The notes under the pieces were generated by a model that made no database searches, was not told where the DNA came from, and saw only the letters and a program-made list of their open reading frames with translations. Below, one piece after another: positions 27,103 through 55,876 of a DNA stretch of 64,000 bases. The position numbers and the translations under genes are program-made. Position 1 is the stretch's first letter. The number at the start of each line of letters is the position of its first letter. The stretch is from IMG/VR virus record IMGVR_UViG_3300029989_000006. The stretch is one strand, 5' to 3'. This DNA is from a virus.

Positions 27103-29145
27103 TTAGTAATTGCTGCAGGCTGTATTTTCAAAACAATTTTGTCCACTTGCATAAGTGTCAATCGGTAATAACATATATAATCCATTATATGAAAAAGTTG
27201 GTTCAGATAAAGAACAAATTCCAAGCATTAATTTTCCATCTTGATTACTTATATTATCAAATTGATTAAAAGGAGCTGTAATTTCATGAATTTCATTTGG
27301 AGGTAAATATGAAATACATAATGGATAATTATTTGAATAAAGTATATCTAAAGGTATTAGTATAGTTCAGCATATTCCCAATCCACTATTAGGATCAGTA
27401 GTTGTTGGTATTTCTTGACAATATTGAGAAGGAGCTAAAACTATTTGCTGTTGAAATAATTGAAGAATATATTCATCAATATTAGTATTTAATGGTTCAA
27501 CTATTAAAGCTTTATTATTTTCCCCAATTGTAAAATAATTAATAATTGTTGGTGTTCCAAAAGCTTCTGCGTATGAATTATTTAAACCATTAAGTAAAAA
27601 TATATATGCATTACTTATATCTGTAACTTTTAATTCATAATCTAAGAATTCTCCATTATTATTTTGTAGTCAATATTCTTGATATAACATATTTCCATTA
27701 ATACAAATATCATTCTGTGGAATAAATTTTATATTATCATAACTTGTATTTATTAGAATAGATCCATGAATTGTATATTTATCTAAAAATTCTTTAGGTA
27801 AATCATCTTCTGTATATTCATCACTAAAGCCTTCTAATGAAAGAATAGGTGTTATAACATATTCTAATAGTTTGTTATTATAATTTGTTCCACTAATATT
27901 ATAAATAATGTAAGATGCTAAATTATCTGTAAACTCCACATTTCATTCATCATATATTTCTGTAGATTTATCTAAATATATTTTAACTTTGGCTTTAGTT
28001 ATTTTAACATCTCCAGTTACTAAATTAATAGATTTTTGAGCAATTCCTTGTAAAGTTAAACTAAATGAATAATAATTTTGTGGAACTAATGTTTCAGTAG
28101 TAAATTCATCAGTCGTTAATTCCTCAGTAGTGGTTGGATCAGTTGTAGATAATACATCAGTAGTAGTTGGTAATACAGTAGTTAGTAATATTGGGATATG
28201 AGGATCTCCAACAAATTCTGAAAGATTAATTGTTGGAACATCAATAACTTTAAATATCTTTAAATCTTCTATTTCTAATGATAAAGCTAATTTTCCTTTA
28301 TATTGAGAAGGACAGTAATATCTAAAATTATTATCATTAAATCAATATTCTCCAACATTAATCTGAAAATTTTTATAATGGTTATACTTTAATCAAATAT
28401 CTTGAGTTAAATCTAAATATCCATTATTTAATTGATGATATAATTTTACTCTATAAAATTTAGGAACAAAAGTAATTTCTGAATAATCTACAATACCTTG
28501 TGAAATATTTTCAGTATGTATAGTTAAACTATTATTAAAAATAATATATCTTCCTGTTTTAAAATCAGTTGTATTAATAACACTATATTTATATAGATCT
28601 GGAGTTACAATGGTTCCATAATAACTTTTACTATCAGAAGCTTCTGGTGAAGGATAACTTCCAAATTCTATTATTCCAAACCTATTATTATAATCCTCTT
28701 CCGTACCAATGATATCTCAATACTTATTAGATTCTTCTGGTAATTTAGGTAAAGTATTATTAAAATAATCTTTTCTCTGATAAAAAATTTTAATATCGGA
28801 TCATACTGGCTTTGAATATACTAAATCATCTTTTATATATGAAACACTTTGATTTCATTCTAGTATATTATTAATATTTATATCTGGTAATTTTCGTGAA
28901 GCTATATATAAAACTCCACCAAATTCTTTCATTCCTAATGGTTGAAATCCTTCAGTTAAGTGAACGACTCCATCTACTGTTTGTATTGGAGCATTACCTG
29001 CATCATTTTGTAGACTTAATTCATCACCATTAAAAGTGATAAAAGTTGCATTTACTGCATCTGTTAGGACATTATTAGGAGTTGTAAGGGGATTTAAGTC
29101 AAATACAAGCCCTTTATCAAAAGTATTAACTGATTCCTTTTTCAT
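27103..29145 (-). CDS. Tail muzzle/stabilisation N-terminal-like protein (680 aa) with Thr-rich insert; code 4
   Basis: NTFDKGLVFDLNP...LTDAVNAT...LQNDAGN and EFGSYPSP motifs; read through TGAs to TAA at 27103. Confidence 0.7.
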
Positions 29146-30861: not shown

Positions 30862-30863
30862 TA

Positions 30864-34638: not shown

Positions 34639-36069
34639 CTAAACTTCTTCAGCAATGAAGGATTTGTAAGGTGCAAAAGCAGCCAATCCTGCATAACCAG
34701 CAACGATTAATTTAGATCCAGCAACTGGAGAACTAACAATACCACTTGTGATACCATCAATTCCACCTACTCCAGGATATTTAGAAGTAACAAATTCTGC
34801 ACCAGCTAAAGTAAATCCAGCGATTGCAGGTTGATTTGTACTCATATCAGGAGTCATGTCTAAACAAATTCCATAAGCTTTTGTTGGGTATTCTTTTGAT
34901 AAAGCACGGTCTACCATGAATGTAACTTGATTACCTGCAATTTGATATGTAGTAAAAGTTCCACCTACTTTAATAGGATTATCCACTTTCATCATAGCAT
35001 TTGAATCTCTAGAATATAACATAGTAGGAGTAGATCCCCATAATTTTAACCAATCACCAAGAGTTGTATTGATTTGTCCCCAGAATCTATCATTAATAAC
35101 AAATGTATAGTTATTACCTGTTGGATTAACAGCTTTTTGATTCATTTGCTCCATTATAGTATTAATAACATTAATATTTAATTTTGCAAATTTGAATTTA
35201 GAGGCAAATCTTTCAATTTGTGGAACAAGACCATCACCAGCAATTAATGGACGACCATCTTCTGTTAAAACAGTAGATTTTCCATTAACATCCATTGTGG
35301 TTTTTTGCCACAATAAAGCGTTGTTTTTCACTGTATTGAAGTTATCCAATAAGTCTTTTTCCATTTTGTTCAATTTGAACAATTTTTCTTTCATTTCACC
35401 AGTACCATCACCTTGGGCAATTTTAATAAACTGATCTTCCATCTGTGCATAACGTGCAGAGTAAGAAATATCATTTCTATGCTCAGTTATCCATTGACGA
35501 TGTTTTTCAATATTACTTTGGTATTTAGTAAATCCTTCCTCATGATATTCAGGTTGAATATTTGCTAAGAAACGAGTAGTCATTCCTAATTGACAAGCTG
35601 ATGCATCTAATATTGCTGAATAATCAGCATCAATTAATTGTACTGTATAAACCCAAAAGTTATCAGCTTGTCTTTCTGGAGTTGCTTTTACAATACATTG
35701 TTGACGAGAGCCGTCAATTTTAAAGGTATCATATTTCTCATAGTATCTTTCTTTAAAATACATGGTAATATCTGCACCAATAGCACCTGTTCCACTTGGA
35801 GCAGCTGCAAATTCAACACGTTTAACAAACTCAACATCAATTTCCCATTCTATCATGAGAGAATTTATTGGCTGAAATTTATTAGCAGTTTTTGAATTAT
35901 AATAAATATTCATTAAACCTTCAGTAAGGAATGTGGCAGTATTTTGAGTATTCATTCTTGCCATAACTCCCATCATCTTTGGTCTAGTTCCTAAAAATTT
36001 GTAGAAATCTTCATAAGTTCTACTGTGTGCCATTTCTGGCTTTACGTTAACGTAACTTGCTACAATCAT
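34639..36069 (-). CDS. Major capsid protein (476 aa)
   Basis: Size, position after an acidic scaffold-like gene, strong terminator, and motifs (EWEI, F.ERYY, GDGLVPQI) typical of crAss HK97-fold MCP; all 7 Trp are TGG. Confidence 0.85.
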   Translation of the reverse strand: MIVASYVNVKPEMAHSRTYEDFYKFLGTRPKMMGVMARMNTQNTATFLTEGLMNIYYNSKTANKFQPINSLMIEWEIDVEFVKRVEFAAAPSGTGAIGADITMYFKERYYEKYDTFKIDGSRQQCIVKATPERQADNFWVYTVQLIDADYSAILDASACQLGMTTRFLANIQPEYHEEGFTKYQSNIEKHRQWITEHRNDISYSARYAQMEDQFIKIAQGDGTGEMKEKLFKLNKMEKDLLDNFNTVKNNALLWQKTTMDVNGKSTVLTEDGRPLIAGDGLVPQIERFASKFKFAKLNINVINTIMEQMNQKAVNPTGNNYTFVINDRFWGQINTTLGDWLKLWGSTPTMLYSRDSNAMMKVDNPIKVGGTFTTYQIAGNQVTFMVDRALSKEYPTKAYGICLDMTPDMSTNQPAIAGFTLAGAEFVTSKYPGVGGIDGITSGIVSSPVAGSKLIVAGYAGLAAFAPYKSFIAEEV

Positions 36070-36079
36070 TTTTTAAATC

Positions 36080-37054: not shown

Positions 37055-37138
37055 TAAACATTAATTCATTATATATTTTTTTATCTATATTAATTTATTT
37101 TTATTTTTTATGAAATAATTAAAATTAATTTATAGTCA

Positions 37139-37202: not shown

Positions 37203-37226
37203 AATTCATTATTAATAGTTTTTTTA

Positions 37227-37442: not shown

Positions 37443-37444
37443 AT

Positions 37445-38097: not shown

Positions 38098-38108
38098 GAT
38101 TTTAAATT

Positions 38109-39695
38109 TTAAAGAATTTGATTTATTAATTGTATTTCGTCTGGTAAAAGAATTCTATTCCAGATTGTAAATTTTGATAATAATCCAGATATTGTATATG
38201 ATAATGAATATCTGGAACCAATATACCAATTTTTTGTTCCAGATATTGGTGTACCTGCTGATTGATTTATATTTCCATATAAAATATTATTAATGTATAT
38301 GTTAGTAATACCCAGTGATGTTGACGTTATTAGAACAGTATATGTGGTATTATAATTTAAATTTCCTCCGATTGCACTCGTTATGTTATTATCTCTTGTA
38401 ACACTTAGTATACCACTAAAATATATATATAAACTCCCATTATCAAATATAACTCCATTTGAATGCATTCTAAATTTAAAAGCAATTGTTAAATCTCCAG
38501 ATAAATTATCAATTGGATTATATATAAGTCTAGCTGCTCCATTAAAATACATAGCACCAAGATTACTCTCTGGGGAGAGAATAAATGTAGTAGCAGAGTT
38601 GGTTGCTGTTAGGCTATTGGTCTTATCTACCCATGTGGCAGATGTGAGACCTTCTGCGTTTAAATTCAATACACATCCAGCTTGAATTAATGATGCATTA
38701 TCAATTGATAAATTAGAGACTCCAGACCAAACTGCATATGATAGCGAAGTCCCAACAGCTATAAATAAATCTATAAAAGTTCCATTTCCAGTATGCTGTG
38801 TATAACCCAATGAAGTATTAACTCCTACTGTACCACTTACGTAATTTATACAATCAAATTTATTAATATATCTTTTATCAATAGTCATCAATCCAGCTTG
38901 TTGTAATGTGTTTCCAGCAGTTGTATTAGCTGTCCCACCAGATATTGTCCAACCAACCCCTTTAGACCATATTGTATCTGTTGCGAAATCTCCATTAACT
39001 ACTAGATTAGCCCCAGTTGTTCCTATGATTCTGTCTATCCACTCAATGGGATACTCTGGCTTAGAGTAGTTTATAACTTGCTGAGATGTTAAAGCATAAT
39101 TAAATACTCTGAACATATAAATAGAACCTTTAAAGTAACCAGCCCAAAATCTTCCAATATTATAATCAGTAGCTGTAATATTTACACTTGTACTTAATGA
39201 AATTAATACATGATCTCTTAGTATACCATCCAAATAACAGTCAACATATGAGGATCTTGTAACTATGATTGAAAGTGAATGATTTACTCCAGAAATTATT
39301 GCAGAACTTGCATTAGGAAAATAAAGATTAATATATGTAGTTGGTGTACCTAACTCAAATGTTAACTGTTTATTATAAATCCATAAACCAATTCCATCAC
39401 TTCCAGTAGTTTGGCCAAATAAACCTTGATAAGATAATGCTGTTTTATCTGAAACATTAAAATTTATTATAATAGAAAAATCATTAACACCAAATGGTGG
39501 TAATGAAGATATAATTGATTTTGAGTTTACTCCATTACAATCTAATGCTCTCCTTCCATTACCTTTATTATCAAGAACTGGATAAACAGCAGTATTAGTG
39601 GGAATTGTTCCACTAACTAAATCTCTACCACCACTCCATTCATCTAGGGGTGTGTGAAAAATCATTCCTTTTTGTAGTTCTGCTATTTGTCTCAT
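38109..39695 (-). CDS. LamG/ConA-like tail or receptor-binding protein, paralogue 3
   Basis: Two LamG-like domains (YLDG...FRVFNYALT; YINN...IWNRIL) flanking a CBM-like NLVVNGDF module. Confidence 0.7.
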   Translation of the reverse strand: MRQIAELQKGMIFHTPLDEWSGGRDLVSGTIPTNTAVYPVLDNKGNGRRALDCNGVNSKSIISSLPPFGVNDFSIIINFNVSDKTALSYQGLFGQTTGSDGIGLWIYNKQLTFELGTPTTYINLYFPNASSAIISGVNHSLSIIVTRSSYVDCYLDGILRDHVLISLSTSVNITATDYNIGRFWAGYFKGSIYMFRVFNYALTSQQVINYSKPEYPIEWIDRIIGTTGANLVVNGDFATDTIWSKGVGWTISGGTANTTAGNTLQQAGLMTIDKRYINKFDCINYVSGTVGVNTSLGYTQHTGNGTFIDLFIAVGTSLSYAVWSGVSNLSIDNASLIQAGCVLNLNAEGLTSATWVDKTNSLTATNSATTFILSPESNLGAMYFNGAARLIYNPIDNLSGDLTIAFKFRMHSNGVIFDNGSLYIYFSGILSVTRDNNITSAIGGNLNYNTTYTVLITSTSLGITNIYINNILYGNINQSAGTPISGTKNWYIGSRYSLSYTISGLLSKFTIWNRILLPDEIQLINQIL

Positions 39696-41341
39696 TATTG
39701 ATTAAGTATTGTTGTTGCTAATTGTATTTCATCTGTTGAAAGTATTCTATTCCAAATAGTTGGTTTAGATTGTTTTCCAATATAATTTATTGTATTATAT
39801 TGTGATCCTCCAAAATACCATGATGTAACACTTAATGGAGTACCACAATTTGAGTTAGGAGTTCCTACTGATACACCATTAATATAAACGTTAGTTATTC
39901 CAGCAGATGTTGAAGTAATGATTAATATATATGTGGTATTGGGTTGTATTGTTGAAAAAGTAACCCATGTAGTAGCATCTCTCTTAACTTGTATTGCAGT
40001 TAATCCCGCGTATATACTTATACAAAATCCATTAGGTAAAGCCAAAACATATCCACTAGATAAATTTAGAATTGGAATAATTTTCATAGCAAATGTAATG
40101 TCCCCAGTTAATCCATTCATTCCAGTATAAGCAATATTTGCCAAACCATTAAAATTAAAGGCTCCTAAATTACTTGTAGTAGGCATCTGAAATAATGTGG
40201 CACTATTAGTAGCAGTCAATGTGTTGGTCTTATCAATCCATGTTCCAGAAGTTAATCCTTCAGAAGTGAGATCAAGAATTGAACCAACTTGAACACATGA
40301 AATATTATCAATTTGAATATTAAAATTATTTCTTCCATCAAATGCACAAAAACAAGTAGATAAATCAGAAAATCCTTTAGAATATATTCTAACAATACCA
40401 GTTCCAGATAATGTTTGTGCTCCTATATATGATAATCCTGTCCAAAATCCATTAAATAAGCAAGTTCCTGAGTTAACTTTATATTTAAATGATAGTTTAC
40501 ATATTTTTCCAGTATCACCAACTGTTTTATTAAATGTAATTCTTGGTCTTGTGGCACCAGTTCCTTGTGATGAAACCACTAATAATCCATCTTTAAGATC
40601 TGAGATTGGAGAATTTGTGTTAAGTGTCCAAGACGATGTTTCACCACCATCAGATAATAATGTTCCAATAATTCCACTTTCAAAATCTCCACCAGAAATT
40701 GTTTCAGTTAATACTACTCTATCAGCATATTCTATTGCATACTCTGGTTTTGAATAGTTAAGAATTTGTTGATATGATAAAGCATAATTAAAAATTCTAC
40801 ACATTGAGATAGTACCATCAAAATATCCACCAGTTCCAAATAATCTTGTTGATGCTACTGAATAGTCAAAAACATCAGAAAATGAACCACATGCAACATT
40901 GTTTATATAATATGTTCCAATTCCATTATTTCTTACATAAGATATAGCGTATTCTGTATTTGCTACTAATGCTACTATAGACTGAGTAACTTGTCCCACA
41001 CCAATCTTGCTTGACTGAATAAAGCCTGTAGATAGAATGTAAATTTGAAAAGCGTTACTTGCACCACCAATTATATTTCTTAACGACCCAATAGTATTTG
41101 TTTTTATCTTAACTGATACAGAAAAATCATTTGTACCAAAAGCTGGCATAGATGGTAGTGATACATATGAAGATGCACCATCTCCACTTAACCATCTTCT
41201 TCCATTTCCTTCATTATTAATAGTTGGATATGCAGCAGTAATAATACCAGTAGAACCTCCTACTAAATCACGAGCACCCATCCATTCATCAAATGGTGAG
41301 TGAAATATAAGTCCTCGTTGTAAATCTGATATTTGTCTCAT
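39695..41341 (-). CDS. LamG/ConA-like tail or receptor-binding protein, paralogue 2
   Basis: Same architecture and shared motifs (MRQ..L, DEW.G.RDLV.G, GNGRR, Y.KPEY.IE, W.DKTN.LTATNS). Confidence 0.7.
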   Translation of the reverse strand: MRQISDLQRGLIFHSPFDEWMGARDLVGGSTGIITAAYPTINNEGNGRRWLSGDGASSYVSLPSMPAFGTNDFSVSVKIKTNTIGSLRNIIGGASNAFQIYILSTGFIQSSKIGVGQVTQSIVALVANTEYAISYVRNNGIGTYYINNVACGSFSDVFDYSVASTRLFGTGGYFDGTISMCRIFNYALSYQQILNYSKPEYAIEYADRVVLTETISGGDFESGIIGTLLSDGGETSSWTLNTNSPISDLKDGLLVVSSQGTGATRPRITFNKTVGDTGKICKLSFKYKVNSGTCLFNGFWTGLSYIGAQTLSGTGIVRIYSKGFSDLSTCFCAFDGRNNFNIQIDNISCVQVGSILDLTSEGLTSGTWIDKTNTLTATNSATLFQMPTTSNLGAFNFNGLANIAYTGMNGLTGDITFAMKIIPILNLSSGYVLALPNGFCISIYAGLTAIQVKRDATTWVTFSTIQPNTTYILIITSTSAGITNVYINGVSVGTPNSNCGTPLSVTSWYFGGSQYNTINYIGKQSKPTIWNRILSTDEIQLATTILNQ

Positions 41342-41342
41342 A

Positions 41343-42941
41343 TTAGAAGGTTTGATTTATTAATGCAATTTGATCTGAAGATAAGATTGTATTCCAAATG
41401 GCAAGTTTATTCATTCTTCCATTGTAAAATCCATTTCCAGCTTGTTGTGCTATATTTAAAGTTGATCCACCATCTACTGGAGTACCAGCAGCTTGATTTG
41501 CAGTTCCACTTAGAACTCCATTAATATAAAAATTTGTTACACCATCAGACTTAGAAGTTATTAGAATAATATTTATGGTATTTAAATTAATACTATTATT
41601 TATTGAAGCAATGGTAGTTGAGCCAGCTCTACTAAATCCTAATCTCATAGTAGTTAGTATATTTATCCAACATTGAGTATTAGAAAATATATACCCAGTT
41701 GTAAGTATAGATATTGGATTAATTATAACTGCTATTGTAATATCTCCAACTAATCCATTCATTCCATTATATACAATTTTTCCAGTACTTCCATTAAAAT
41801 ATGTAGTACCTAAATTGCTAGAACTTGGTAAAATATATTGACATCCAGAATTAGTAGCAGTTAATGAATTAGTCTTATCTACCCAAGTAGATGTTCCCAT
41901 ACCTTCTGAATTTAAATCTAATACACACCCAACTTGAATTAACGATAAATTACTAAAATCTGCATCAGTAGCACTTCCAGATCTTTTTATTGCAAGTGTT
42001 GAAGAAGCAGTAATTATGTATGAATAGGTTCCTGGAATTGCTAATATAGGTATAGTACTAATTCCACCATCAATAGCTAATTGACCTAATCTGTTGGCCA
42101 ATAGTTGTATTGTTAACCTATATTTTTTATTAATTAACCAAATAGCATCTTTATATATCTCTGCAATTGCTCCAGATGTGTTTATATTACAAATACCTCC
42201 AGAAATTGTTACATTACCAAGCTTTGACCAAAAACCAGTGTCAGAAGAGAAATCTCTATCTGCTGAATTAGTAATTAATTCTGTTCCTATAGTACCTATA
42301 ATCCTATCAGCATATTCAATAGCATATTCAGGTTTAATGTAATTAACTATTTGAGTTGGAGTTAGTGCATAATTGAAAATCCTTAACATAGATATTGATC
42401 CTGCAAATCTATTATTAGTAGCATCACCAGAATTAATTCTATTAAAAGTAATTGCTGTACCGCCACTACCCATTGTGATTGTTTGGTGAAATATACCATC
42501 TATATATAATGAAATATTTCCTTTTCCATCTGCAACATAAGCAATAGTAACCCATGTGTTAATAATTGGAACATCAGAAAAATATCCATAAACGAGACTC
42601 TGATTTCTAAATGACCAGACATTTCCTACATAATTAATATTAATACCATCATTATGGACTGAACTTCCTACGAGAAAACTCCAGCCTAATTTACTTGGAT
42701 TAATTTTCAATATAATACTAAATGCGTCTGTGGCTGAAAACGTAATGCTTGGAAATGAGGTATAACTATAAATAGTATTGCTATAATCCAGCCACCTCCT
42801 CCCATTACCTTTATTATCTATTGTTGGATAAATAGTAGTAGGTGTACCTATCGCTCCACTAACAAGATCACGAGTTCCACTCCATTCGTCCAATGGTGCG
42901 TAGAAAATAAGATTTTTTTCTAATTCTGCTAATTGTCTCAT
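41343..42941 (-). CDS. LamG/ConA-like tail or receptor-binding protein, paralogue 1
   Basis: Start reassigned to MRQLAEL (ATG at 42941) by alignment with the two paralogues. Confidence 0.7.
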   Translation of the reverse strand: MRQLAELEKNLIFYAPLDEWSGTRDLVSGAIGTPTTIYPTIDNKGNGRRWLDYSNTIYSYTSFPSITFSATDAFSIILKINPSKLGWSFLVGSSVHNDGININYVGNVWSFRNQSLVYGYFSDVPIINTWVTIAYVADGKGNISLYIDGIFHQTITMGSGGTAITFNRINSGDATNNRFAGSISMLRIFNYALTPTQIVNYIKPEYAIEYADRIIGTIGTELITNSADRDFSSDTGFWSKLGNVTISGGICNINTSGAIAEIYKDAIWLINKKYRLTIQLLANRLGQLAIDGGISTIPILAIPGTYSYIITASSTLAIKRSGSATDADFSNLSLIQVGCVLDLNSEGMGTSTWVDKTNSLTATNSGCQYILPSSSNLGTTYFNGSTGKIVYNGMNGLVGDITIAVIINPISILTTGYIFSNTQCWINILTTMRLGFSRAGSTTIASINNSINLNTINIILITSKSDGVTNFYINGVLSGTANQAAGTPVDGGSTLNIAQQAGNGFYNGRMNKLAIWNTILSSDQIALINQTF

Positions 42942-42942
42942 G

Positions 42943-44031
42943 TTATGATTTTGATATGATTCTCCAAGCTGAAGTAACACTATTCCATGCGAATCCTACA
43001 TCTAATCTGACTCCTAGAACTGTAGTAGTAGGCAATGTTATCGTACCTGACGCTTCAAATTTTGCACCCCACGTAATTGCTCTTGCTGTACCATTATCAG
43101 TTATATCAAACCATAATTGATCTCCTTGTAATGGAGTACCAGTTAAATTAGTAGTCATTGATGTAATAGCCTGAGCTAATCCAGTAATATGTACTTGATC
43201 AGTAACATCAGTGTTAATAGTAGGAGTAGCTGACTGAGTTACTGCTGGAGCACGTTGAGTTATTCTTTTATTAGTAAGTGTTTGTACAACCGTTAATCCT
43301 GCAATAGTATCAGTAGCTGGAAAGGTTAATGTTGAAGCATCTACACCAGCAAATGTTAAGCTATTAGAAACATTCAATTTTTTTCCAGTTGCTACAATTA
43401 CTCCTTCATACCAGTAATTCCATGAAGCTATACCAGTACCTCCAGCTACATTTATACACGTAAATGTAGCTGTTGATCCAGCAGCCATAATTATTAACTG
43501 ATTACCACCAGAAGTGTTAACAGTTATAGCACCAGTTGAACTATTTGTAATCCAAAAAGATGCACCATTTCTTAAGGTAGTTACAACTGGTAAAACTAAT
43601 GTTTGAATAAGTGTGCCAGTAAAAAATTGTTGATATGCTGAAGATGAAGTTAACGTAGTTGTACCACTAGCTGTTGCTTGAGTAGTATAACCCTCTAAAA
43701 GATTAGTTACAGAAACTAATGGGTTATTAACACTACCTGCACCATCAGATAATGCTGTTACTTTAAATAAGTCAACACCACCTACAGTTATTATAACACC
43801 ATGCTCAGTTCCAGCAGGTGATAATGCATCTACTGGAATATCAATAAACCTATTAACGCCAGCATTTCTAACATGAAATAATGCATTAATGCCAACTGGT
43901 TGTCCAAATGTTGTAACATTATCTTTTGATAATTTAAATAAATTGGCAATATTTCCTGTATAATCTAAAGCAGTTTGCCATGTATCATTTGCATATGCAA
44001 CTATAGTTGCTAAAAGTACTTTAGGTCTCAT
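42943..44031 (-). CDS. Tail fibre-like beta-rich protein
   Basis: Thr/Gly-rich with QTLVLP, QTLTNKRI and TDNGTARAITW fibre-like motifs. Confidence 0.6.
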   Translation of the reverse strand: MRPKVLLATIVAYANDTWQTALDYTGNIANLFKLSKDNVTTFGQPVGINALFHVRNAGVNRFIDIPVDALSPAGTEHGVIITVGGVDLFKVTALSDGAGSVNNPLVSVTNLLEGYTTQATASGTTTLTSSSAYQQFFTGTLIQTLVLPVVTTLRNGASFWITNSSTGAITVNTSGGNQLIIMAAGSTATFTCINVAGGTGIASWNYWYEGVIVATGKKLNVSNSLTFAGVDASTLTFPATDTIAGLTVVQTLTNKRITQRAPAVTQSATPTINTDVTDQVHITGLAQAITSMTTNLTGTPLQGDQLWFDITDNGTARAITWGAKFEASGTITLPTTTVLGVRLDVGFAWNSVTSAWRIISKS

Positions 44032-45297: not shown

Positions 45298-46383
45298 TTA
45301 AACTACATAATAACATCTAGCACCAGTTGTTAATCCTGATCATTCTGATTCATCTTGTACTAATGGAATGAGATTATTATTATTATCTTTGGTTTCTGCT
45401 AAATGTTTTGCCAATCATACTTGATCTCCTATTTTTACTGTAGGATATTCCTTTCCATCATTACCAATATATGTGCCAGTATTTATTCCATTATCTTTTA
45501 TTAATCGAATTGATATACCATAATGTACATTTAAAGCACTGTCTGTATAAGCACTTGCATTTGAATAATAACCTAGTTGTGATACATATAATATAGTTGG
45601 ATCACCTATATTAAGTTCAGTACTAGTCCAAATTTGAACTTGGGATCCGTATGCAAATTGAGAACCATTACTTCCTCTACTTGGAGAAGGTAAGAGATTA
45701 AATTCAAAATCATTTGTTGCAGCCGTATTTGGAGTAAGTCAATGAGTAGTACCAACTTCTTTTAAATGTCCCCCAGCAATTAGTGCACCACCAACATTAG
45801 CTAATAATATATCCACATCAGTTCGAGTAGGTATATGTCATCCAGAATTTGCAATATTATTAATAGTTAATCCATTATATTGATATCCATATTCATCAAC
45901 AATATGTGGTACATACTCAGTAGTTGTAAATTGAGTAGTTGAAACTGTTGTAGATTGGGTTGTAGAAACAGTAGTAGATAATGTAGTAGATAATGTAGTT
46001 GAAATAGTAACTTGCGTTGTAGCTTGGGTAGTTATATTAGTAGTTGGTGCTAAAGTAGTTGGTAAAAGTGTAGTTTCTTCAGTAGTTTCTTCAGTAGTTA
46101 AAGATTCTGAAAAACAACCAGATTCATCTACATACTCCGCCTCATTTAAATAACATATATATCTAAAATCAATTCCATCTATTTGTAATTCAATATAATG
46201 TTTAAATGCTTCAAATCTGGTTTCATAATTAATTTGAACCATTGTAGATAATACATTACTCGATATTGTAGGATAATAAACTCCATTAACTGTAAAAGAA
46301 TCCTTACCATCATATGTTATTTTTATTGCATCACTTATTATATTAAAAGTAAGTGACCTTTTTTTACCTGTATATTTATACAT
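45298..46383 (-). CDS. Mucin-like Thr-rich protein with circularly permuted FISUMP (Fib_succ_major) domain (361 aa); code 4
   Basis: Thr-rich tract, then YGYQYNG...SG-W-HIPT...AGGHLKEVGTTH-W...GISIRLIKD...GNDGKEYPTVKIGDQV-W-LAKHL...E-W-SGLTTGARCYY. Confidence 0.8.
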
Positions 46384-46385
46384 AA

Positions 46386-47303
46386 TTAAAATATTAATTC
46401 CTTAAAATTCTTTTCAGTTTCTCTAATTTCTTTTACAAAATTGTATCCACAATTAGTATCAGATACTTTAATCTCTTGACCAAATGGACTTTTTACATTA
46501 AACTGTGCTTTATAAAAATGAATATCATCAACTTTTGTAATTCCTGCATTATGAAAAATATTTAATTTGTCTCATGAGGAAATCTCACTCGTTGCCCATG
46601 AAAAATCTAATTCTTTTACTACTTTAGTTTCATGACCAAAATATCATGCATTTCATAAAAATGCTCACATACTTGCAGTTCATTTTTGTATAGGATGTTT
46701 AGGATTATATATATTTGAAGTTTCATTCATTAATTTATAAAGATCCTCTGAATCATTATAACACTTATGTCAGTATTCTTCATTTGTTTTTTTAAGAATA
46801 TATTGTGCTCCACCAGTATTTTTATCATTCTTTTCCACTAAAGTAGGATCAATTTTAACAATCTCACACATTCTTTTAAATAATTCAGGACTTTTACTTT
46901 TTATATAAGGAGAATGAAGATAGGATTGTGTATTACTTAAATATCAAATTGCATCTCTATCATATTTTTCTAAATCCATCTTCTTTGTGAAAATAACATC
47001 AGGATCAGTATGAAAAATTGTTTCAGTTTCCATAATATTACTAATCCTACAAAATTTTTCAAATAAATGTGGACTTAAAGAAACAGCATAACCTCTTTTT
47101 TCTCTTTCATCTTTAAATACATAAAATTCAGATTTTAAATCTTTACTTCTAATAATTTTATTTAACTCTGGAGACACTTTATTAGTATATCCAAATAAAT
47201 AAACTACGTCTTGTTCAATTCCCATTTTGCGAAAATTATTAATTTGAACAAGTGTCTGTCATAAGTAATATTTTGTATCAGGAATTGTTAAGATAAATTT
47301 CAT
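46386..47303 (-). CDS. GT-A fold glycosyltransferase resembling peptidyl-serine galactosyl/hydroxyproline arabinosyltransferases (GT96/GT95-like) (305 aa); code 4
   Basis: YYL-W-Q near the N-terminus, HTDPDVIF (DxD), GGAQY, K-W-TASM-W-AFL-W-NA-W and IFHNAG; 8 TGA versus 1 TGG. Confidence 0.6.
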
Positions 47304-47915
47304 TTATGAACTATATAAATTAGACAAGTCAAATAATAACATAGATTTATCATTATAATATGGATATGCTTCTCTGCAATCTTCATTTATAAGATATATT
47401 GGTTTTAGCTTAAATGGAAGTACTGTTAAATTAATGGGATGTCATTGTCCATCTAAGATTGGATAATTAATCTGTTTAGAGGGAAAACTTGTTGCTAACA
47501 AATATTTACTTCCACTTTGTTGAATATTTTTTATGGCTTTAATAACATTTTGTTCACTTAAATGACCTAAACAATCTCTTACAAAAACTAAATCTGCAAT
47601 AGGTAATTGATCATTTATAATGTCTAAAGTTAAAAATTTTTTATTTGGGTATTTCCATCTATTTTGTAGTACAATATCTTCTACAATATCTGCCCCAGCA
47701 TAACTTATAGTATCTAAATCTAAATTCTTCATCCAATTAAAATCTCCACAAGGAATGTCTAATATAGATTTTATATCATATTTTAAGAATAAAAATGGTA
47801 ATTCCATTCTTAATTTTTTTGTTGCATCTAAACTACTTCCAGTTCCACTTCTACTTTCACTTCCACCCCATTCATTACTTTCAAAAATATTTTTAAATTT
47901 CTCTGATAATTCCAT
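47304..47915 (-). CDS. Class I SAM-dependent methyltransferase (203 aa); code 4
   Basis: SRSGTGS, SILDIPCGDFNW, YAGADIV and RDCLGHL; reads through TGA (DGQ-W-HPINL) to TAA at 47304. Confidence 0.85.
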
Positions 47916-47919
47916 TTTC

Positions 47920-48882
47920 TTATTTATTTAAGTCTAAAAACTCAATTAACATTTTTTTATAATCTCTTTTTCATTGGGGTTCTAATTGAATATCTCCAAC
48001 AATAATCTCTTTATTTAATCTCTGTTGTTCAATAAACTTTTGATGTTCTATTAATACATTTAACTTTGATTGACTAGACATATGATAATTACCATCCCCT
48101 CAATTATAAATTCAACTAACTTCTTCATTAATAGGATTAGCTCTTACTATATTTTTGGATTCTTTTAATATTTTAGAAGTAAAAGTCATATCATATCCAA
48201 AATTTTCTTTGGCATGTTTTCCAACTTTTTCTCAAATATTTTTACTATAAACTATTCCAGAATTACCTAACGAACATAATTTCTCAATTTGATGTTTCAT
48301 CATAAAGATTCCATTATTTCAATACATTAGATCAGTTCCTTCTATGAAATATTTATAAATATTATCTAAATGATTAGGTAAAGCTATATCATCATCATCT
48401 CATACTACAATTATTTCTCCAGAACACTGTTTTACTGCAAAATTCTCTTTATCCCCAATAGTATCAAAAGTTTTATTCATATTAAAAATTTTAATCTGTG
48501 GATGTTTAAAGAATAATTTTTGTTGTGGATAATCATTTACAATTATTAATTCTTTTGGCCCAATGTATTCTTGTTGTAAAAAAGATTGAATAGATTCTTC
48601 TAAAGATTCTACTCTACCATAAGTAATACATTTACATGAAATTAATGGTAAAGTATTATCTAATTCTTTAAATAATGATAAATTATCATTTTCAGTAAGT
48701 TCTAATTTTTTTATTCCATTTCCAAAAGAGTATTCTAATTCAAGATATTTAATTTGATTTGGCAATGGATCTCCAAATAGATAATTTCCAATTTTTATAT
48801 TTATACTATCTGTATAAATATGTTGGGTAAGAATGTCTTTAACATCCTTACCTCCATATTTTGCCTTTAATATCTTTAACAT
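47920..48882 (-). CDS. GT2 family glycosyltransferase with N-terminal SUEL/DUF3395-like lectin domain (320 aa); code 4
   Basis: ILKAKYG...FGDPLPNQIKYLELEY lectin-like module; ISCKCITYGR...SFLQQEY...ELIIVND...V-W-DDDD. Confidence 0.85.
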
Positions 48883-48885
48883 ATA

Positions 48886-50859
48886 TTAAGGATTACTACA
48901 ATCAGTTACAAAACTTATACTACCATAATTATCAGGTGTATTAACTACAGTTCCTGATTGTGCACATATATCTACAGCTGGATCTCCATATGAAATATTA
49001 AAACTAGATGTTCCTCCTCAACATGGTTCACATTCAAAATAAGCTATCTGTCCTGGAGTTACACATGTAGCAGAATATAATGAACATGTTCCTAATGTAG
49101 TAGTTCCTTCTGTAGTAGTTTCAGTAGTTGTATCTTCAGTAGTTGTGTTACCTGTTGTGTCCTCAGTAGTTGTTACTTCAGTAGTATTCTCAGTAGTTGT
49201 ACCTTGAGTTGTTTCTTGTGGACAACCATCTCCCTCAATTTGTGTTAACCCAGTAATTAATGGATAACCTCATTGTTCATAAGAAGGAGTACTTGCACTA
49301 TTAAATACAATATATATGGCAGAGCCATCAGTCATTATTGGATAATTTATACCACTATGATTGATTTCATTCTCAGTAGCAGCACAATACCCATAAAGTT
49401 GATCACCTTCATTAAATGGGCAGGCACTTACTACACTATAATAACCATAAGGTGTAGATGGTGTAGTTGTGTTTTCTGTCGTTATTTCCGTTGTAATAGG
49501 TAATGTTGTTGGTTGAGTTGTTGATTGAGTTGTTGATTGAGTAGTAATAGGTTGAGTTGTTTCTGTTGTAGTTTCTCCGGGACAATATTTTTGACCTGTT
49601 GAAATTACTGTTCCATTAACCCATTGATAATCTATACTAGTTCATGCATCTGTTACTGAATATATTTCATTTGCAAATATGTAATAATCTCCATCAATAT
49701 AAACTCTATCAAGAGAACTTAATTCCAAGGATGTATCTTCAATATGTTTATAATAATATCCATCATTAGGACATTTTACATAAAAAGTATAATAACTTCC
49801 TAAAACTGTACTTCCAGGTAATGTTGTTGGAGCTGTAGGAGGTATTGGAGTTGTAGGTGGAATAGTTGTTGTTGGTATAATAGTGGTTTGTTCTTCAGTA
49901 GTAGGTTCATCTGTAGTAGTTGCTAATGTATAAAAACTTAATTGATTTCCATAAGCTGTACCAGCACTATTTATTGCATAAGCCCTTACATAATATAATG
50001 TCTCAGAATATAATCCAGAGAGATAACTACTAAAACTTCCAGAACCAGATCCATCAATTGTTTTTGGATTACTAGTTGTTGGATTTTGACTTGTACTTCA
50101 ACATATTCCTCTTACAGAAATTGATGCTCCACCATTATTAGTTATATTTCCTCCAGAAAATGCATAAGAATCACTAATACCAGTAATTGAATTAGTACTA
50201 ATAGTAGGTAATACCGCTGAACTATTTATGCTAAATTGTTGTCCATAAGATGTTCCTGAAGCGTTAATAGCATAAGCTCTAATATAATAAGTTATACCTG
50301 GAGTTAATCCAGTTATAATACTTGAATATATTCCAGTTCCAGATCCATTATTAGTTTTACTATTAGTAATTGTTGGATTTTGAGAAGTACTTCAACATAC
50401 TCCTCTACTTGTAACAGTTCTATTTCCACTACTTATAACATTTCCACCACATTCTGCAGTACTTGCTCCAGTAATAGTAGGACTTAATGTTAACACAACA
50501 GGAGGTCCTAATGTTGTAGTAGGTGTAATAGTAGTAGGAATTAAAGTTGTAGGAATTAATGTAGTTGTTGGTCCAAGTGTTGTTGGATGACATTCTGCTC
50601 CATCTACTATTCCTTGTGGAATATTAGAAAGTTTATAACCAGGATTAGATTGATCTATAAATAAAATAAAATCATTATATCTTGTAGTATAATCTAAATT
50701 GGTATATAATTTTAATTCATCTGTTGTAATTAAAGGATATGATCGTCCTTGTATTGTAAAAGCATTTAGAAGATTTCATGTAGATACTGCAACTAATGCA
50801 TCATCTATATATTTATTAACTTCTAATAAATAACCTAATTTTTTTCCAGTATTCGCCAT
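48886..50859 (-). CDS. Mucin-like Thr/Pro-rich protein with two Fn3-like domains and Cys-bounded modules (657 aa); code 4
   Basis: Open from ATG 50859 to TAA 48886 when TGA = Trp. Two RG[VI]C-W-STSQNPT...YY.RAYAIN.AGT.YG repeats and four Thr-rich linkers; missed by the ORF track. Confidence 0.85.
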
Positions 50860-50871
50860 TAATATTTATAT

Positions 50872-52713
50872 TTAAATTTCTATTATTGTAACAGTATTAT
50901 TTGCTTGTAAGTATTGAATATCACCATCTGGTTGTCCCTCATTACAGGTCATTAATGCTGAGGGAACTGTTAAAGTAATTGTATTTTCTACTATACCATT
51001 AAATACACCATTAAATTCAACTGTTATACCCAAATTTGTACATAATGGAATATTAATTAGTATAAGATTTGCACAATCATAAAAACAATTATTTCCAATT
51101 GTAGTTAAATTAGGAAAATCTAAACTTATTAAACTTCCACAATTATAAAAACATCATTCTCCAGTAATAGTTAAATTAGGTAAAGTTACAGTATTAAGAT
51201 AAATGCATCCACTATAATTGCGTGAACCAAAACAATTATTTCCAGCAATAATAATACATCCAGCATTATCCTCAAATCCTCTTATGTTAATACCATAACC
51301 ACCTACATCATCAAATAAATTATCTTTTAATATAATATTAGATCCTCCATAAAGATTAACTACATTATCAATAACATTAACAGAAGTAAATGGAGTTCCA
51401 TTAGTAGGTAAATCAAAAAATGTATTTCAATCACTAACATTAGACGAACTACCAGAAATTAATAAATCTGCATAAGTAATATTAATAAGTGTAAGTTTTA
51501 ATGATTGTTCTTCAACAGTTGTTGTTATAATTGTAGTAGTTGTAGTAGTTTCTTCTATAGTAGTTATAGTATCTATATATCTACTTCTTGCCCCACTTGT
51601 TAAATCATGTCATACTGTATTATCTTCAATTATAGGAATAATGGAATGATCTCTATATTGTGTTTCTTTTAAATCTTCAGCCATTCACCATTGTGAATCT
51701 ATTAATACACAATTATATCTACGTGAATCATTTCCTACATAAATTGCATGATTATCTAAAATTTCAATAGGAGTATCTACAATTAATCGGATTGAAAAAC
51801 CACTATTTATTGAATAATTATGTCCTTTATTTAAAGAATTTGAATAGTCATTTAGGAAAATGTATGTTGGAATTCCATAATATAAAGTTGATATTCAAAA
51901 TCATGTTGTATAACCCTTATAATAACACTCACCTGAATTATCTCTATATCCTCCTGGTTTTGCAGTAAATCCAAAATCATTTGTACTTCCTGAATCAGTA
52001 ATTCAGTTTTCAGTACCTATTTCTTTTAATTTTCCCCCTGCAATTCCAATATCTCCTAAAAATGTTATTAAGGTATTAATCTCATTATTTGTTGGCACAT
52101 GTGCATTTGAATTGGAAATATTTCTTTCATCTAATATAGTATAGCCATTATATAAATATATATTATCATATTCATCTATAGTTGTTGATAAAGTAGTTCC
52201 TATTGTGGTTTCAGTACTAGTAGGTTCTGTTGTAGTTATAGTAGATTCTGTTGTAACTTCAGTTGTTGTTTCTTCAATAGTAGTCTCTTCAATAGTAGTC
52301 TCTTCTGTTGTAGGTATTTCTAAATATTGACATATTCAGGTTCTAAATATAGATATAAAAGAATTATGTGGAACTTTATATTGACACACAAATTCATTAA
52401 TATTTGTATTATAAAATATGTATAAAATATGTTGACAAATATATTTATTAAATCTTGACGTGTATGATATTATTGGAATAGTAGTTGTTGTAGGAATTAT
52501 TATATTTAATGCTTGACAAACAGAATTTACTCATAAAGAATCATAAGATAATTTTGAAACATGTGTAGTAGTTGTATCAACAATAATCTGACATAAATAC
52601 TCATTAAATTGAGAATAATAAGAAACTAATTCTTCTATTTGTTCACAACTAAAATCAGTAAATTTTACACAATATCTTTTAAAATCCAGTACTGGTGGAC
52701 AAATATTACTCAT
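50872..52713 (-). CDS. Mucin-like Thr-rich protein with permuted FISUMP domain and C-terminal BspA-like LRR (613 aa); code 4
   Basis: Thr/Glu-rich tract, then AGGKLKEIGTEN-W...GFTAKPGGYR...GFSIRLI...QW-W-MAEDL, then LPNLTITGE-W-CFYNC / FPNLTTIGNNCFYDC repeats. Confidence 0.8.
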
Positions 52714-53650: not shown

Positions 53651-55876
53651 TTAATATTTTCAAGTACTGTTTTTAACCTCATCATTTCTATGATTTTCAT
53701 CTAATAATTGTAGCCCTTCAAGTTGTACACCTTTCTTTTCTAACTCTAATTTCTCTTCGTTAAAACTATTTAAGGTTTTAGCTTGATACCATTTCAATTG
53801 TTTTTCAAATTCCAATCTATCTCTTTCAAGTTGTAACTTGTCTGCAGATAGTTTTTGAACTTCTTGTTGTAACTTTTGAGCTTCAGATGTTGTTTCTTTC
53901 AATTGTTTATCCAATTGTTCAACTTGCTGAGATAATTGTCCAAGTTGATTATTTTCTTTTCTTTTCTTATTTAATGCTAATAAAACATCTTCTTTCATTC
54001 TTGTTAATCCTGAAGAAGTAATTACTTCCAGAATAATTTCTGGATCAACATTTCCTGCTTTTATAAATTCAGAAGATAATTGTTTTATTGTTTCTTGTTC
54101 TTTCATTATTTCTGTAGTATCTGATACATGTATATCATAATCAGTTATTGTATAATGTTCTGGTAATGCAGTAAATACTTTATTTAATCTATCACCTAGA
54201 ATTAATGTTCCAGAAATTCCTTTCTTATAAATAATTTTAGCAAGGTTAAGAATATCAAGTAATATTTCTCTTGTCATTAAATCCATGACTTGATAATATT
54301 GTTTTGTAATAAAAAATGATTGTTGTACTCCAACTTTAACATTTGTTACTGCATCTTTTTGTTCTATTCCTCCAAGTTTTTCTTTAAAAACTCCAGTAAT
54401 AGTTGAACAAGTTTCTTCTACTCTTTGTATAGCTAATTCAATTGCCTGTATTGCATTTAATTTAACTGTATCATCATATCCACCAAAAGTTGTATTCATA
54501 GGAGGTAATCCTTCTTGAGAAGAATCTATAATTTTTATACCAGTTTTTCCATATGCTTTCCATTTCATTAATCTTTCAGTTAAATCTGATCCTAAAACTT
54601 TTGGTAAATATGCTATATCTAATCAATCACCAGTAGAACCTGATTCTGCAATAATATTATCTCTATAAAAATGTAATATATCAAATTTATCCTGTAAATT
54701 AGCTGTGCTTAAAATTAAAGACCAAGGATCTCCATTTCTATCTGCATAAAACATTCCATTAATAGTTAGTGAACAATGTTTTGGATTATCAGCACTTCTA
54801 ATTATATTTTTTGATAAACCTGTTGGAATAAATATATTAGTTCCAATACGAGTTCCTTCATATCTATTCATAATATATTCATTATTTTTATCCTTTTCAG
54901 ATTTTAATCATTCTACTTCATATACAGGATATACTCTAAAATACTTAGAAGTATTTCTTTCATAAGGTAATAGAGGTGTAACTTCAAATCCTCCTAAAAT
55001 TCCATCAGAGATAGTATTTCCAGTAGTTGAATCATAACTTCTTAGATAAGTTGTAGTAGAACCATCAATACTGAAATCTTCCATATCTTCTAATTTCTCT
55101 AAATCATCTGGAGTAAGTATATCTCCATATCTTGCAAAGATTTGATCTTTTGTAAGATATTCACGAGATACTGCTCTCATTGAATCTTTTAAATATGGTG
55201 ATTCAGAATTTCTATCAATAAAAGTATTGATTGGATTTAGTACTTTTAATTGAACATTTTCCTTAGAATCAGATGCAAGTACTCTATAATAACATGTACC
55301 TGATACTAACATATCAGTTAATATTGTTTTTCTTTTATTAGTAAAATCAATGTTTCTTGATTGCATTGCTCAATCTATAATATTTTGTCCTGCAATTTCG
55401 TAATCAGATATGAAATTTCTTTCAGTTGCCTCTAATACTTTATCAAGTTCTTCCTGTATTTGTGAATCAGGAGTTCCTGGTTTTCCTTGTAAAGCAGAAT
55501 AAATTTGATTTTGTAAATGTTGTTTCAATACATTTACAATTTCAGAATTTATTTTTAATTGTTTATCTCTATGAATATTAGATAAAGTATCTTCATCTTT
55601 GCATGAAATTCTTGGAAGTAATGGTGTTGATAAATATTCCCCAATTAAAACATCTACATGTTTTCTCACCAAAGGAATAAACTCTACTGATGTAGGTGTA
55701 CCTATACCATAATTTTCTTCTAGATGCCTAAATTGCTCAGGATCTCTTTTTCCATGATAATAATTATAGGCTTTAATTAATTGAGTTTTTTCATAAACTA
55801 ACTCATTAATTGCTCTGTTAATATTATCAAGAATTTCTTGTTCTTGTTCTTGTTTATTCTTTTTCTTTTGAGTCAT
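53651..55876 (-). CDS. Portal protein (741 aa); code 4
   Basis: Four same-frame fragments joined by TGA; AYNYYHG, IPLVRKHVDVLIGE, ITGV...LGGI and a coiled-coil C-terminus; downstream of TerL. Confidence 0.85.

Follow-up and report, generated by a model that had tools for sequence, protein, structure and literature searches.

Virion O-glycosylation has reportedly been documented, by Freeman et al. in 2023, for the mycobacteriophages Che8, Corndog, and Myrna. In streptococci, serine-rich repeat adhesins are glycosylated in the cytoplasm by GtfA/B and then by GT8 (e.g., GlyE) and GT2 enzymes. In plants and algae, the HPAT and peptidyl-serine galactosyltransferases (GT95/GT96, PF23452) initiate O-glycosylation of structural proteins with Ser/Hyp-rich repeats, and in animals the GT27 polypeptide GalNAc-transferases combine a GT-A domain with a lectin domain. 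Here we describe a six-gene cassette of a crAss-like phage, lying between the genes for the portal and the major capsid protein, which on comparative sequence evidence is probably (at a rough probability of 0.7) a phage-encoded cytoplasmic module that O-glycosylates the linkers of the phage's own fibres on head or tail.

A recoded cassette in the structural gene block

Read with TGA as tryptophan (table 4), positions 45298-52713 of the window (the whole stretch of DNA analysed, 64,000 nucleotides) resolve into six abutting minus-strand genes, three for fibre-like proteins (P0001-P0003) and three for enzymes (P0004-P0006; Table 1). An earlier interpretation made from the letters alone, hereafter the sequence-only reading, had placed the ORFs in code 4, and all six are found exactly there; the intergenic gaps, which it had put at 0-12 nt, measure 12, 3, 4, 0, and 2 nt in the order P0001, P0002, P0004, P0005, P0006, P0003, and gaps of 131 and 200 nt flank the block. 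Its remark that standard-code calling hides most of the cassette also holds: table 11 reduces the enzyme genes and P0003 to fragments of 93-181 aa and gives no ORF of at least 80 aa in P0001 and P0002, the two largest genes. Judged by its sequence, the phage belongs to Crassvirales, with crAss-type portal, major capsid, tail ring, and muzzle genes in conserved order (muzzle protein, PF25731, 72 bits; ring 1 and ring 2 matches weak), and these matches around the cassette put it inside the head and tail morphogenesis region, as had been proposed.

Table 1. Features of the cassette and its genomic surroundings (all on the minus strand).
Feature	Position	Strand	In-frame TGA	Description
Portal protein	53651..55876	-		phrog_6547 E 1.4e-50, PF16510; upstream boundary of fibre block
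P0001, fibre-like, 613 aa	50872..52713	-	9	N-terminal short Cys-motif repeats, two Thr tracts, FISUMP (Fib_succ_major), C-terminal BspA-type LRR
P0001 Thr tract 1	52180..52311	-		aa 135-178, 52% Thr, TT-EE-TT pattern
P0001 Thr tract 2	51517..51570	-		aa 382-399, 67% Thr, between FISUMP and LRR domains
P0002, fibre-like, 657 aa	48886..50859	-	6	N-terminal ~90-aa domain, two fn3-like domains, four Thr/Pro tracts
P0002 Thr/Pro tracts	50488-50583, 49822-49929, 49453-49599, 49087-49212	-
P0004, 320 aa	47920..48882	-	6	SUEL/rhamnose-binding-lectin-like N-domain (aa 1-78) and GT2 inverting glycosyltransferase
P0005, 203 aa	47304..47915	-	1	Class I SAM-methyltransferase-like; phrog_3382 'methyltransferase' E 2.6e-49
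P0006, 305 aa	46386..47303	-	8	phrog_4417 E 1.2e-68; GT8-like retaining GT-A glycosyltransferase (predicted)
P0006 D100-x-D102 codons	46998..47006	-		DxD metal/nucleotide-sugar motif, invariant in 34 homologues
P0003, fibre-like, 361 aa	45298..46383	-	4	N-terminal anchor-like domain, Thr tract, FISUMP domain
P0003 Thr tract	45919-46098	-		60 aa
Major capsid protein, crAss-type	34639..36069	-		PF23898, 46 bits; downstream landmark
680-aa protein adjoining muzzle gene	27103..29145	-		Fourth, weaker Thr tract: 10 Thr in 20 residues

Threonine-rich fibre-like proteins

The claim that three Thr-rich proteins bracket the enzymes is borne out by seven Thr tracts located in P0001-P0003, which are 18-60 aa long. 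A density of at least 10 Thr per 20 residues is reached by four ORFs in the 64-kb window, three of them in the cassette; the fourth, the 680-aa protein, is a possible further acceptor. With their interrupted pattern (TT-x-x-TT, 44-67% Thr), the cassette tracts differ from the uninterrupted poly-Thr that makes up most of the family statistics given below.

The three proteins are built alike, each combining a putative attachment part at the N terminus with at least one Thr-rich linker and with FISUMP, LRR, or fn3-like binders at the distal end. P0001 matches PF09603 (67 bits) and PF13306 (44 bits), and at its LRR end it shares 50% identity with a fibre gene of the crAss-like contig L004. P0002 and P0003 have their N-terminal domain of about 90 aa in common, that of P0003 being 45% identical to a Thr-tract protein of L004 that adjoins a GT2 and a P0006-like gene, and the P0002 homologue in the closest relative, L086, has a PTTTD-type tract of far greater length. 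The crAss001 genes that follow the portal specify fibres of the head and tail, whose docking is by short N-terminal segments (PMC10172136), and from this synteny and the shared architecture we infer that P0001-P0003 are fibres located in the virion.

Domains of the FISUMP and BspA-LRR kinds are characteristic of proteins on bacterial surfaces, and the only PHROG structural family matched is a weak minor-tail one, so the Thr-rich proteins might be glycosylated by the cassette without being part of the virion, serving as soluble or lysis-released adhesins or decoys with FISUMP, LRR, and fn3 binders. We consider this improbable given the position of the genes between portal and capsid, where crAss001 encodes its fibres, the sharing of an N-terminal domain by P0002 and P0003 in the manner of fibre anchors, and the finding that in cultured carriers of the enzyme the presumed acceptor is the tail-tube protein itself. 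For P0001-P0003 as virion fibres, the place of modification may be read from the translations, which on inspection lack a hydrophobic signal-like start in all three proteins; together with the compact, globular models of both glycosyltransferases, this fits cytoplasmic modification before assembly.

Two predicted glycosyltransferases and a putative methyltransferase

The second GT-A enzyme of the sequence-only reading, P0006, is predicted to be a GT8-clan retaining glycosyltransferase. Its AlphaFold2 model is compact and globular (pLDDT 96), the DxD motif is positioned as in the usual GT-A topology, and the fold aligns over 211-247 residues (Z 13.2-14.7) with Skp1 alpha-GalT, LgtC, glycogenin, the UGGT catalytic domain, and GlyE. 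Protein-glycan enzymes (the cytoplasmic Skp1 alpha-GalT, glycogenin, and GlyE) are about equal as structural neighbours to LgtC and WbbM, enzymes of LOS and O-antigen assembly. By sequence, P0006 has no Pfam match at E up to 0.1, and 0 of 34 homologues match any GT8 (Glyco_transf_8) model at E up to 5. The parallel that had been drawn with GT96/GT95 enzymes survives as a lead at the level of the fold, an ESM Atlas algal HPAT cluster being the best named structural match (TM 0.76) of P0011, a 55%-identical P0006 homologue, but not at the level of sequence profiles: PF23452 has no hmmscan match in P0006 or its 33 homologues, and when five phage records with P0006-like genes were searched for PF23452 there was no match, but the controls were not recovered either. 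The family, phrog_4417, comprises about 1000 clusters at 50% identity and extends from Firmicutes siphophages to jumbo and crAss-like phages; its cultured carriers include Enterococcus phage phiFL1A, Lactobacillus phage iLp84, and Chryseobacterium phage MA9V-3. Its members in other phages are fused to GT2, GT6, GT11, GT7C, GT32, methyltransferase, and radical-SAM/SPASM domains, partners that are all glycan- or peptide-tailoring and are counted in favor of the glycosylation reading.

P0004 is, as had been suggested, a lectin-like domain fused to a GT2 glycosyltransferase of GT-A fold, with a PF00535 score of 42.5 bits (cut-off 23.3), a Foldseek probability of 1.0 to GT2 structures, and a DDDD motif (residues 162-165) invariant in 30 homologues. 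The profile of its N-terminal 78 aa matches SUEL-type lectins (PDB 5h4s, E 1.3e-9; CSL3, E 8.4e-6) over just 37 or so of 76 positions, and below-threshold Pfam matches of N-domains of this type are to SUEL_Lectin in 4 of 12 members and to DnaJ-like_C11_C in 10 of 12. The SAM methyltransferase assignment of P0005 agrees with its PHROG match (Table 1); its Pfam scores for Methyltransf_23/25/12 are 16.5-17.5 bits, under cut-offs of 27-30, and fused homologues carry methyltransferase Pfam domains. Members of the P0005 family are joined to GT2, GT34, HtrL_YibB, and FkbM domains, and the nearest homologues (60-64% identity) directly follow P0006-type genes.

Coupling of the P0006 family to threonine tracts

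The coupling of this enzyme family to Thr tracts is evident both statistically and as joint presence and absence. Among 75 non-identical phage loci with a P0006-family gene, at least 10 Thr in 20 residues were found in 43 of 72 proteins encoded just upstream (position -1), against 13 of 628 encoded four or more positions away, and runs of at least five Thr in 50 of 72 against 23 of 553 distant genes (Fisher p about 1e-37 to 1e-38), a position-specific enrichment of roughly 30-fold; at about a quarter of the loci, a Thr tract is missing from every gene up to three positions away. Lengths of the -1 proteins run from 125 to about 1500 aa, and their tracts are in many cases internal, so that co-insertion of one DNA segment fails to account for the link; the -1 proteins that can be identified are major tail proteins. 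In 20 tail-tube homologues of Enterococcus phage phiFL1A (64-100% identity), a poly-Thr C-terminal tail is present in nine, and the enzyme gene lies immediately downstream in 9/9 with the tail and 0/11 without it, although few independent events are represented since eight of the nine are nearly identical. The cassette presents the same pairing in its sequence, one structural-module Thr-tract protein lying at +1 of P0006 and two others upstream of it, at a distance of three and four genes. The comparison, which took in hundreds of phages, suggests that P0006 puts sugars on the Thr tracts of the cassette.

Some relatives lack the pairing, and on other contigs it recurs. Two complete relatives, one of 178 kb (TGA-recoded) and one of 172 kb (TAG-recoded), resemble zeta-group phages in size and recoding (PMC12386605); in neither was a homologue of P0004, P0005, or P0006 found, while positive controls were, and no protein anywhere in them reaches 10 Thr in 20 residues. 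The crAss-like contig L004 carries genes for a GT2 (62%) and a P0006-like enzyme (55%) together with Thr-tract LRR and anchor-domain proteins. On L288, four Thr-tract proteins in a row, FISUMP homologues among them, are followed by a lectin-GT2, further glycosyltransferases and methyltransferases, and a P0006-like gene. L290 shares these upstream proteins and the lectin-GT2, and the contig ends before any P0006-like gene could show. The three closest lectin-fused homologues of P0004 all lie in glycosylation islands, two of which have a P0006-type gene, and two (L288 and L290) have Thr-tract FISUMP proteins upstream; the lectin-GT2 subtype thus recurs with both. As whole families, GT2 and the methyltransferases are mostly without Thr tracts and show no linkage in the phage loci compared, and within GT2 the linkage is confined to the lectin-fused subtype, so the roles proposed for P0004 and P0005 rest on adjacency and on that subtype.

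The sequence-only reading had named co-occurrence with Thr-rich genes in related phages as a check and membership of the enzymes in DNA- or LPS-modifying families as evidence against itself. Coupling is strong and position-specific in unrelated phages and is seen in Crassvirales as well, and none of the enzymes falls in a DNA-modifying or specific LPS-modifying family. DNA glucosylation is the best-known activity of phage glycosyltransferases (PMC12619734), and hypermodification of the phage DNA by the glycosyltransferases and the methyltransferase would be in keeping with this; we regard it as very improbable, given the location of the genes in the late structural block and not among DNA-metabolism genes, the glycan-building domains found as fusion partners in the P0006 family, and the lack of any reason that it gives for the Thr-tract coupling. 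A somewhat better candidate, though still unlikely, is action on host glycans (LPS or capsule intermediates, or host glycoproteins), for example as a superinfection block or release aid, the Thr tracts being unglycosylated flexible linkers. GT2 enzymes and LgtC- or WbbM-like GT8 folds do commonly make LOS and O-antigen, and GT2 and methyltransferase families occur in many phage loci that have no Thr tracts; this leaves unexplained the tract enrichment beside P0006-family genes and the joint gain or loss of poly-Thr tail and enzyme in homologous tail-tube proteins, and 0/9 scanned ORFs match a membrane flippase or integral-membrane transferase family.

Discussion

The overall interpretation of the cassette as a system that glycosylates the phage's own Thr-rich fibres is supported by these comparisons. 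P0006 would set the first sugar on linker threonines, the lectin-fused GT2 P0004 would recognise that sugar and add the next, and P0005, as a putative sugar O-methyltransferase, would methylate the glycan, giving mucin-like, stiffened, protease-resistant linkers on the virion fibres. We infer threonine as the acceptor, the order of the enzymes, the identities of the sugars, and a benefit to the phage; the division into initiating, extending, and methyl-capping steps, and shielding, stiffening, or mimicry as the purpose, may apply as the sequence-only reading had it, and the host may, as it also supposed, be one of the Bacteroidota. More broadly, we would give even odds that phrog_4417 represents undescribed phage-borne initiating peptidyl-threonine O-glycosyltransferases, structurally allied to the plant HPAT type, which with Thr-tract 'tags' would form a widespread means of sugar-coating capsids, tail tubes, and fibres; here the glycan on the receptor-binding fibres would be extended to a mucin-like coat by the methyltransferase and the lectin-guided GT2. 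If so, sugar-coated phage particles would be far commoner than the one proven case.

That case, the mycobacteriophage system, resembles the cassette in that a phage would use glycosyltransferases of its own to decorate its surface proteins. The kinds of enzyme overlap (GT2 and O-methyltransferase): in Che8, gp109 is a GT2 and gp108 combines a GT2 with a TylF-type O-methyltransferase. The P0006 family was compared with Che8 gp108-110 and appears unrelated (hhalign probability 0.05-0.16%). The Che8 glycosyltransferase genes lie at the far right genome end, whereas those of the cassette are among structural genes, and the capsid and tail-tube proteins of Che8 have short C-terminal ends, KTGS and SDGS, and no Thr tract, whereas the presumed acceptors in this Crassvirales phage are long internal linkers of fibre-like proteins.

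The streptococcal system, like the one proposed here, uses soluble GT8- and GT2-type enzymes to build short O-glycans on long Ser/Thr-rich tracts before delivery, and among the structural neighbours of P0006 is GlyE (Z 13.2), with sequence identity of only about 10%. It starts with the GT-B pair GtfA/GtfB, which the cassette does not have, and its acceptors are exported bacterial adhesins rather than phage proteins. The HPAT-type enzymes are membrane-anchored in the Golgi and act on Hyp or Ser, whereas P0006 is soluble and presumably acts on Thr. The GT27 enzymes share with P0004, encoded beside dense Thr clusters, the union of a GT-A domain with a lectin or lectin-like domain, which in GT27 is C-terminal and ricin-type and in P0004 is N-terminal, putatively SUEL-type, and attached to an ordinary GT2 catalytic domain; by analogy with GT27, the lectin-like domain of P0004 could steer follow-up glycosylation.

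A recoded gene cassette in a crAss-like phage

Portal, crAss capsid, ring and muzzle proteins mark the window as part of a crAss-like phage, and the relatives of its portal are recoded contigs of 172-178 kb, which matches the published zeta group, where TGA recoding of late genes was already known (PMC12386605). With TGA read as tryptophan, the six abutting minus-strand genes that the sequence-only reading had described in 45298-52713 are recovered at exactly those coordinates: three threonine-rich fibre-like proteins (P0001-P0003), a lectin-fused GT2 glycosyltransferase (P0004), a methyltransferase-like protein (P0005) and a GT8-like enzyme (P0006). Each gene contains 1 to 9 in-frame TGA codons, and the spacing is 0-12 nt between genes, with 131 and 200 nt at the two ends of the block. 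Under the standard code the cassette is indeed largely hidden, as had been proposed, with the enzyme genes and P0003 appearing only as fragments and P0001 and P0002 lacking any ORF of at least 80 aa; it illustrates how modules of this kind in recoded phages escape standard-code gene calling. No tRNA genes were found in the 64-kb window, and a promoter and terminator scan returned fewer promoter-like sites than in shuffled sequences and a single weak terminator, which falls within a gene.

Features of the window, with the reading used for the cassette genes
Feature	Coordinates	Strand	Reading
P0001	50872-52713	-	TGA=Trp
P0002	48886-50859	-	TGA=Trp
P0004	47920-48882	-	TGA=Trp
P0005	47304-47915	-	TGA=Trp
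P0006	46386-47303	-	TGA=Trp
P0003	45298-46383	-	TGA=Trp
Portal	53651-55876		
crAss capsid protein	34639-36069		
Ring proteins	30157-31532		
Muzzle protein	22686-27092		

Recoding is uneven along the window. About 12 kb of minus-strand genes (31602-44031), including three Laminin_G_3 paralogues and the capsid gene among others, have almost no in-frame TGA, and the flanking genes have 1-23 each; this stretch may be an import from a standard-code phage or a set of genes kept translatable without suppression. By long-ORF totals, a single portal clade holds one TAG-recoded complete genome together with another complete genome and the window, both TGA-recoded.

Threonine tracts in fibre-like proteins

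P0001, P0002 and P0003 hold seven threonine tracts of 18-60 residues (44-67% threonine), placed between recognizable modules. P0001 has a FISUMP domain and ends in a BspA-type LRR, P0003 also has a FISUMP domain, and P0002 has two fn3-like domains. P0002 and P0003 have in common an N-terminal domain roughly 90 aa long (27% identity, E 1e-7). Inspection of the three translations revealed no hydrophobic signal-like start. The genes that follow the portal in crAss001 specify head and tail fibres, whose docking relies on short N-terminal segments (PMC10172136), and because of this synteny and their architecture P0001-P0003 look like fibres. Next to the muzzle gene, a protein of 680 aa (27103-29145) has a fourth threonine tract, with 10 threonines in 20 residues, and may be an additional acceptor outside the cassette.

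Several features of these proteins are recorded here in their own right. A short motif, aromatic-x-x-Y/W-hydrophobic-C-Q-hydrophobic, repeats in window 52320-52713 (P0001 aa 1-130) with a threonine run after each copy, and is common to LRR fibre proteins of three phages (the window, L086:6252-7826 in the closest relative and L004:3365-6223 in another crAss-like contig); possible roles are a disulfide-linked stalk repeat and an element recognized by the enzyme. The FISUMP profile matches in P0003 and P0001 stop before a C-terminal segment resembling the usual start of the domain (45298-45480 and 51580-51760), which is consistent with circular permutation. The P0002 copy in the closest relative (L086:7837-9107) has 74% identity to the window's copy across its first 350 aa yet carries a long PTTTD-type repeat expansion, and the tracts of the window are encoded by imperfect tandem repeats of 12-27 nt (one of 42 nt); tract length therefore evolves fast.

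A relative with a 96% identical portal has threonine-tract proteins, one tract being greatly expanded, and another crAss-like contig, of 94.6 kb, has the cassette, with threonine-tract LRR and anchor-domain proteins, a GT2 enzyme (62%) and a P0006-type enzyme (55%). Two complete relatives, one of 178 kb (TGA-recoded, portal identity 66%) and one of 172 kb (TAG-recoded, portal identity 45%), yielded no homologues of P0004, P0005 or P0006 in a search that found the positive controls, and a full six-frame threonine-window scan of both genomes found no protein, in any frame or code, with 10 threonines in 20 residues. A DNA pattern of seven threonine codons, a pattern unsuited to interrupted tracts like those of the window, also found nothing in the relatives.

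The P0006 family is coupled to threonine tracts across phages

The association of P0006-type genes with threonine-tract proteins extends well beyond crAss-like phages. Our sample comprised 82 viral loci and three isolate genomes with P0006 homologues, giving 75 non-identical enzymes of 34-57% identity, and every ORF neighbouring these homologues was scored for threonine density. The same-strand gene directly upstream reaches at least 10 threonines per 20-residue window in 43 of 72 loci, compared with 13 of 628 genes at least four positions away; for runs of at least five consecutive threonines the corresponding counts are 50/72 and 23/553 (Fisher p ~1e-38). The upstream partners range from a 125-aa tail protein to fibre-like proteins of up to 1500 aa, often with the tract internal; co-insertion of one DNA segment therefore fails to explain the link. 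Where they can be named, the partners are major tail proteins, and in cultured Enterococcus, Lactobacillus, Staphylococcus and Chryseobacterium phages the enzyme gene adjoins poly-threonine tail proteins. Such carriers include Enterococcus phages phiFL1A and phiFL2A, in which the tail-tube protein gp50 has a poly-threonine tail and gp51 is the P0006-family gene, Lactobacillus phages iLp84 and PLE3, and Chryseobacterium phage MA9V-3. A natural experiment is offered by 20 homologues (64-100% identity) of the tail-tube protein of Enterococcus phage phiFL1A: the enzyme gene is immediately downstream in 9/9 of those ending in a poly-threonine tail and within 3 kb in 0/11 of those without one, a comparison that represents few independent events because eight of the nine positives are near-identical.

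This position-specific coupling bears on what the enzymes modify. Were their substrate a host glycan, or phage DNA, a threonine tract in the adjacent gene would be left unexplained, and the same is true if the glycosylated threonine-rich proteins were not part of the virion. Best supported is instead the interpretation that the P0006-type enzyme probably attaches sugars to threonines within the tracts of structural proteins of the phage itself, in line with the proposal of the sequence-only reading that the phage glycosylates its own fibre stalks; the comparative evidence of coupling and enzyme folds supports it.

Enzyme families and folds

P0006 matches no Pfam or NCBIfam family; it falls in phrog_4417, of unknown function. 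Its model, folded with 33 homologues (pLDDT 96), predicts a GT-A enzyme with an invariant D100-x-D102, and among solved folds it comes nearest to retaining enzymes of the GT8 clan (Z 13-14.7), including Skp1 alpha-galactosyltransferase, LgtC, glycogenin, the UGGT catalytic domain, WbbM, and GlyE from the streptococcal serine-rich-repeat pathway. An earlier suggestion of GT95/GT96 chemistry survives as a fold-level lead, a match to an algal HPAT cluster (TM 0.76) made in the ESM Atlas with a 55%-identical database homologue of P0006, and has no counterpart in a profile match; searching five phage records with PF23452 (HPAT) gave none, nor did the controls. The family is large (986 clusters at 50% identity, E up to 0.001), and elsewhere its domain is fused to GT2, GT6, GT11, GT7C and GT32 domains, to methyltransferases and often to radical-SAM/SPASM domains, which are typical of peptide-modifying maturases. 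The radical-SAM/SPASM fusions include L067:9992-11989, which adjoins a pure poly-threonine protein, L077:9992-11974 and about 25 database clusters.

P0004 falls in GT2 (42.5 bits) and has an invariant DDDD motif. Profile comparison matches its residues 1-78 to rhamnose-binding lectins of the SUEL type (5h4s, E 1.3e-9), with only half of the domain aligned. P0005 falls in phrog_3382, annotated as methyltransferase (E 2.6e-49), and has relatives fused to several glycosyltransferase domains; a sequence search against solved structures gave nothing significant. The expected co-occurrence of glycosyltransferases with threonine tracts, which holds for the P0006 family and the lectin-fused GT2 subtype, fails for the GT2 and methyltransferase families at large: as general markers these were rejected, with a tract at position -1 in 0/48 and 0/39 loci and a P0006-like gene no more than six genes away in just 7/60 and 5/47. 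Within these families the lectin-fused GT2 subtype alone follows the module. Its three closest members (L288, L290 and L291) all lie in glycosylation islands, two of which have a P0006-type gene (L288, 39% identity; L291, 36%), and the L290 contig ends before one could appear; threonine tracts occur in four consecutive proteins upstream in both L288 and L290, some of them FISUMP homologues of P0001 and P0003. Beside its lectin-GT2 and P0006-like genes, the L291 island (4216-6832) encodes an FkbM-type methyltransferase, an NDP-sugar epimerase/dehydratase, an acetyltransferase and a DegT aminotransferase, gene content suggesting synthesis of an unusual amino sugar for the glycan in some of these phages.

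Possible mechanism and significance

In the proposed mechanism, the P0006-type enzyme would act on the threonine tracts in the cytoplasm, before assembly, and the lectin-GT2 and methyltransferase would elaborate the glycan; we infer threonine as acceptor, as well as the sugars, the sequence in which the enzymes act and what the phage gains. These findings suggest that virion glycosylation is widespread among phages. If the P0006 family glycosylates threonine tracts, such glycosylation would be common and reach crAss-like phages, with bearing on fibre mechanics, protease resistance, mucus adherence, receptor binding and antibody recognition of therapeutic phages, and a soluble enzyme with a short, genetically encodable threonine tag could serve O-glycoprotein production in bacteria. 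Since cultured phages pair the enzyme with poly-threonine tail proteins, the hypothesis is directly testable.

Comparison with the mycobacteriophage system

The literature searched, with incomplete coverage, contained no paper on a threonine-tract/glycosyltransferase module in phages beyond mycobacteriophages. The only experimental case of phage virion glycosylation that we could trace, Freeman et al. 2023 as cited by other papers, is reportedly that of the mycobacteriophages. Mycobacteriophage Che8 has three glycosyltransferases (a GT2 fused to an O-methyltransferase, a GT2 and a GT25), which are unrelated to P0006 and encoded at the far end of the genome, and its capsid and tail-tube proteins have no threonine tract. 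The present module is therefore not a member of the mycobacteriophage system, although it would resemble that system in its working.
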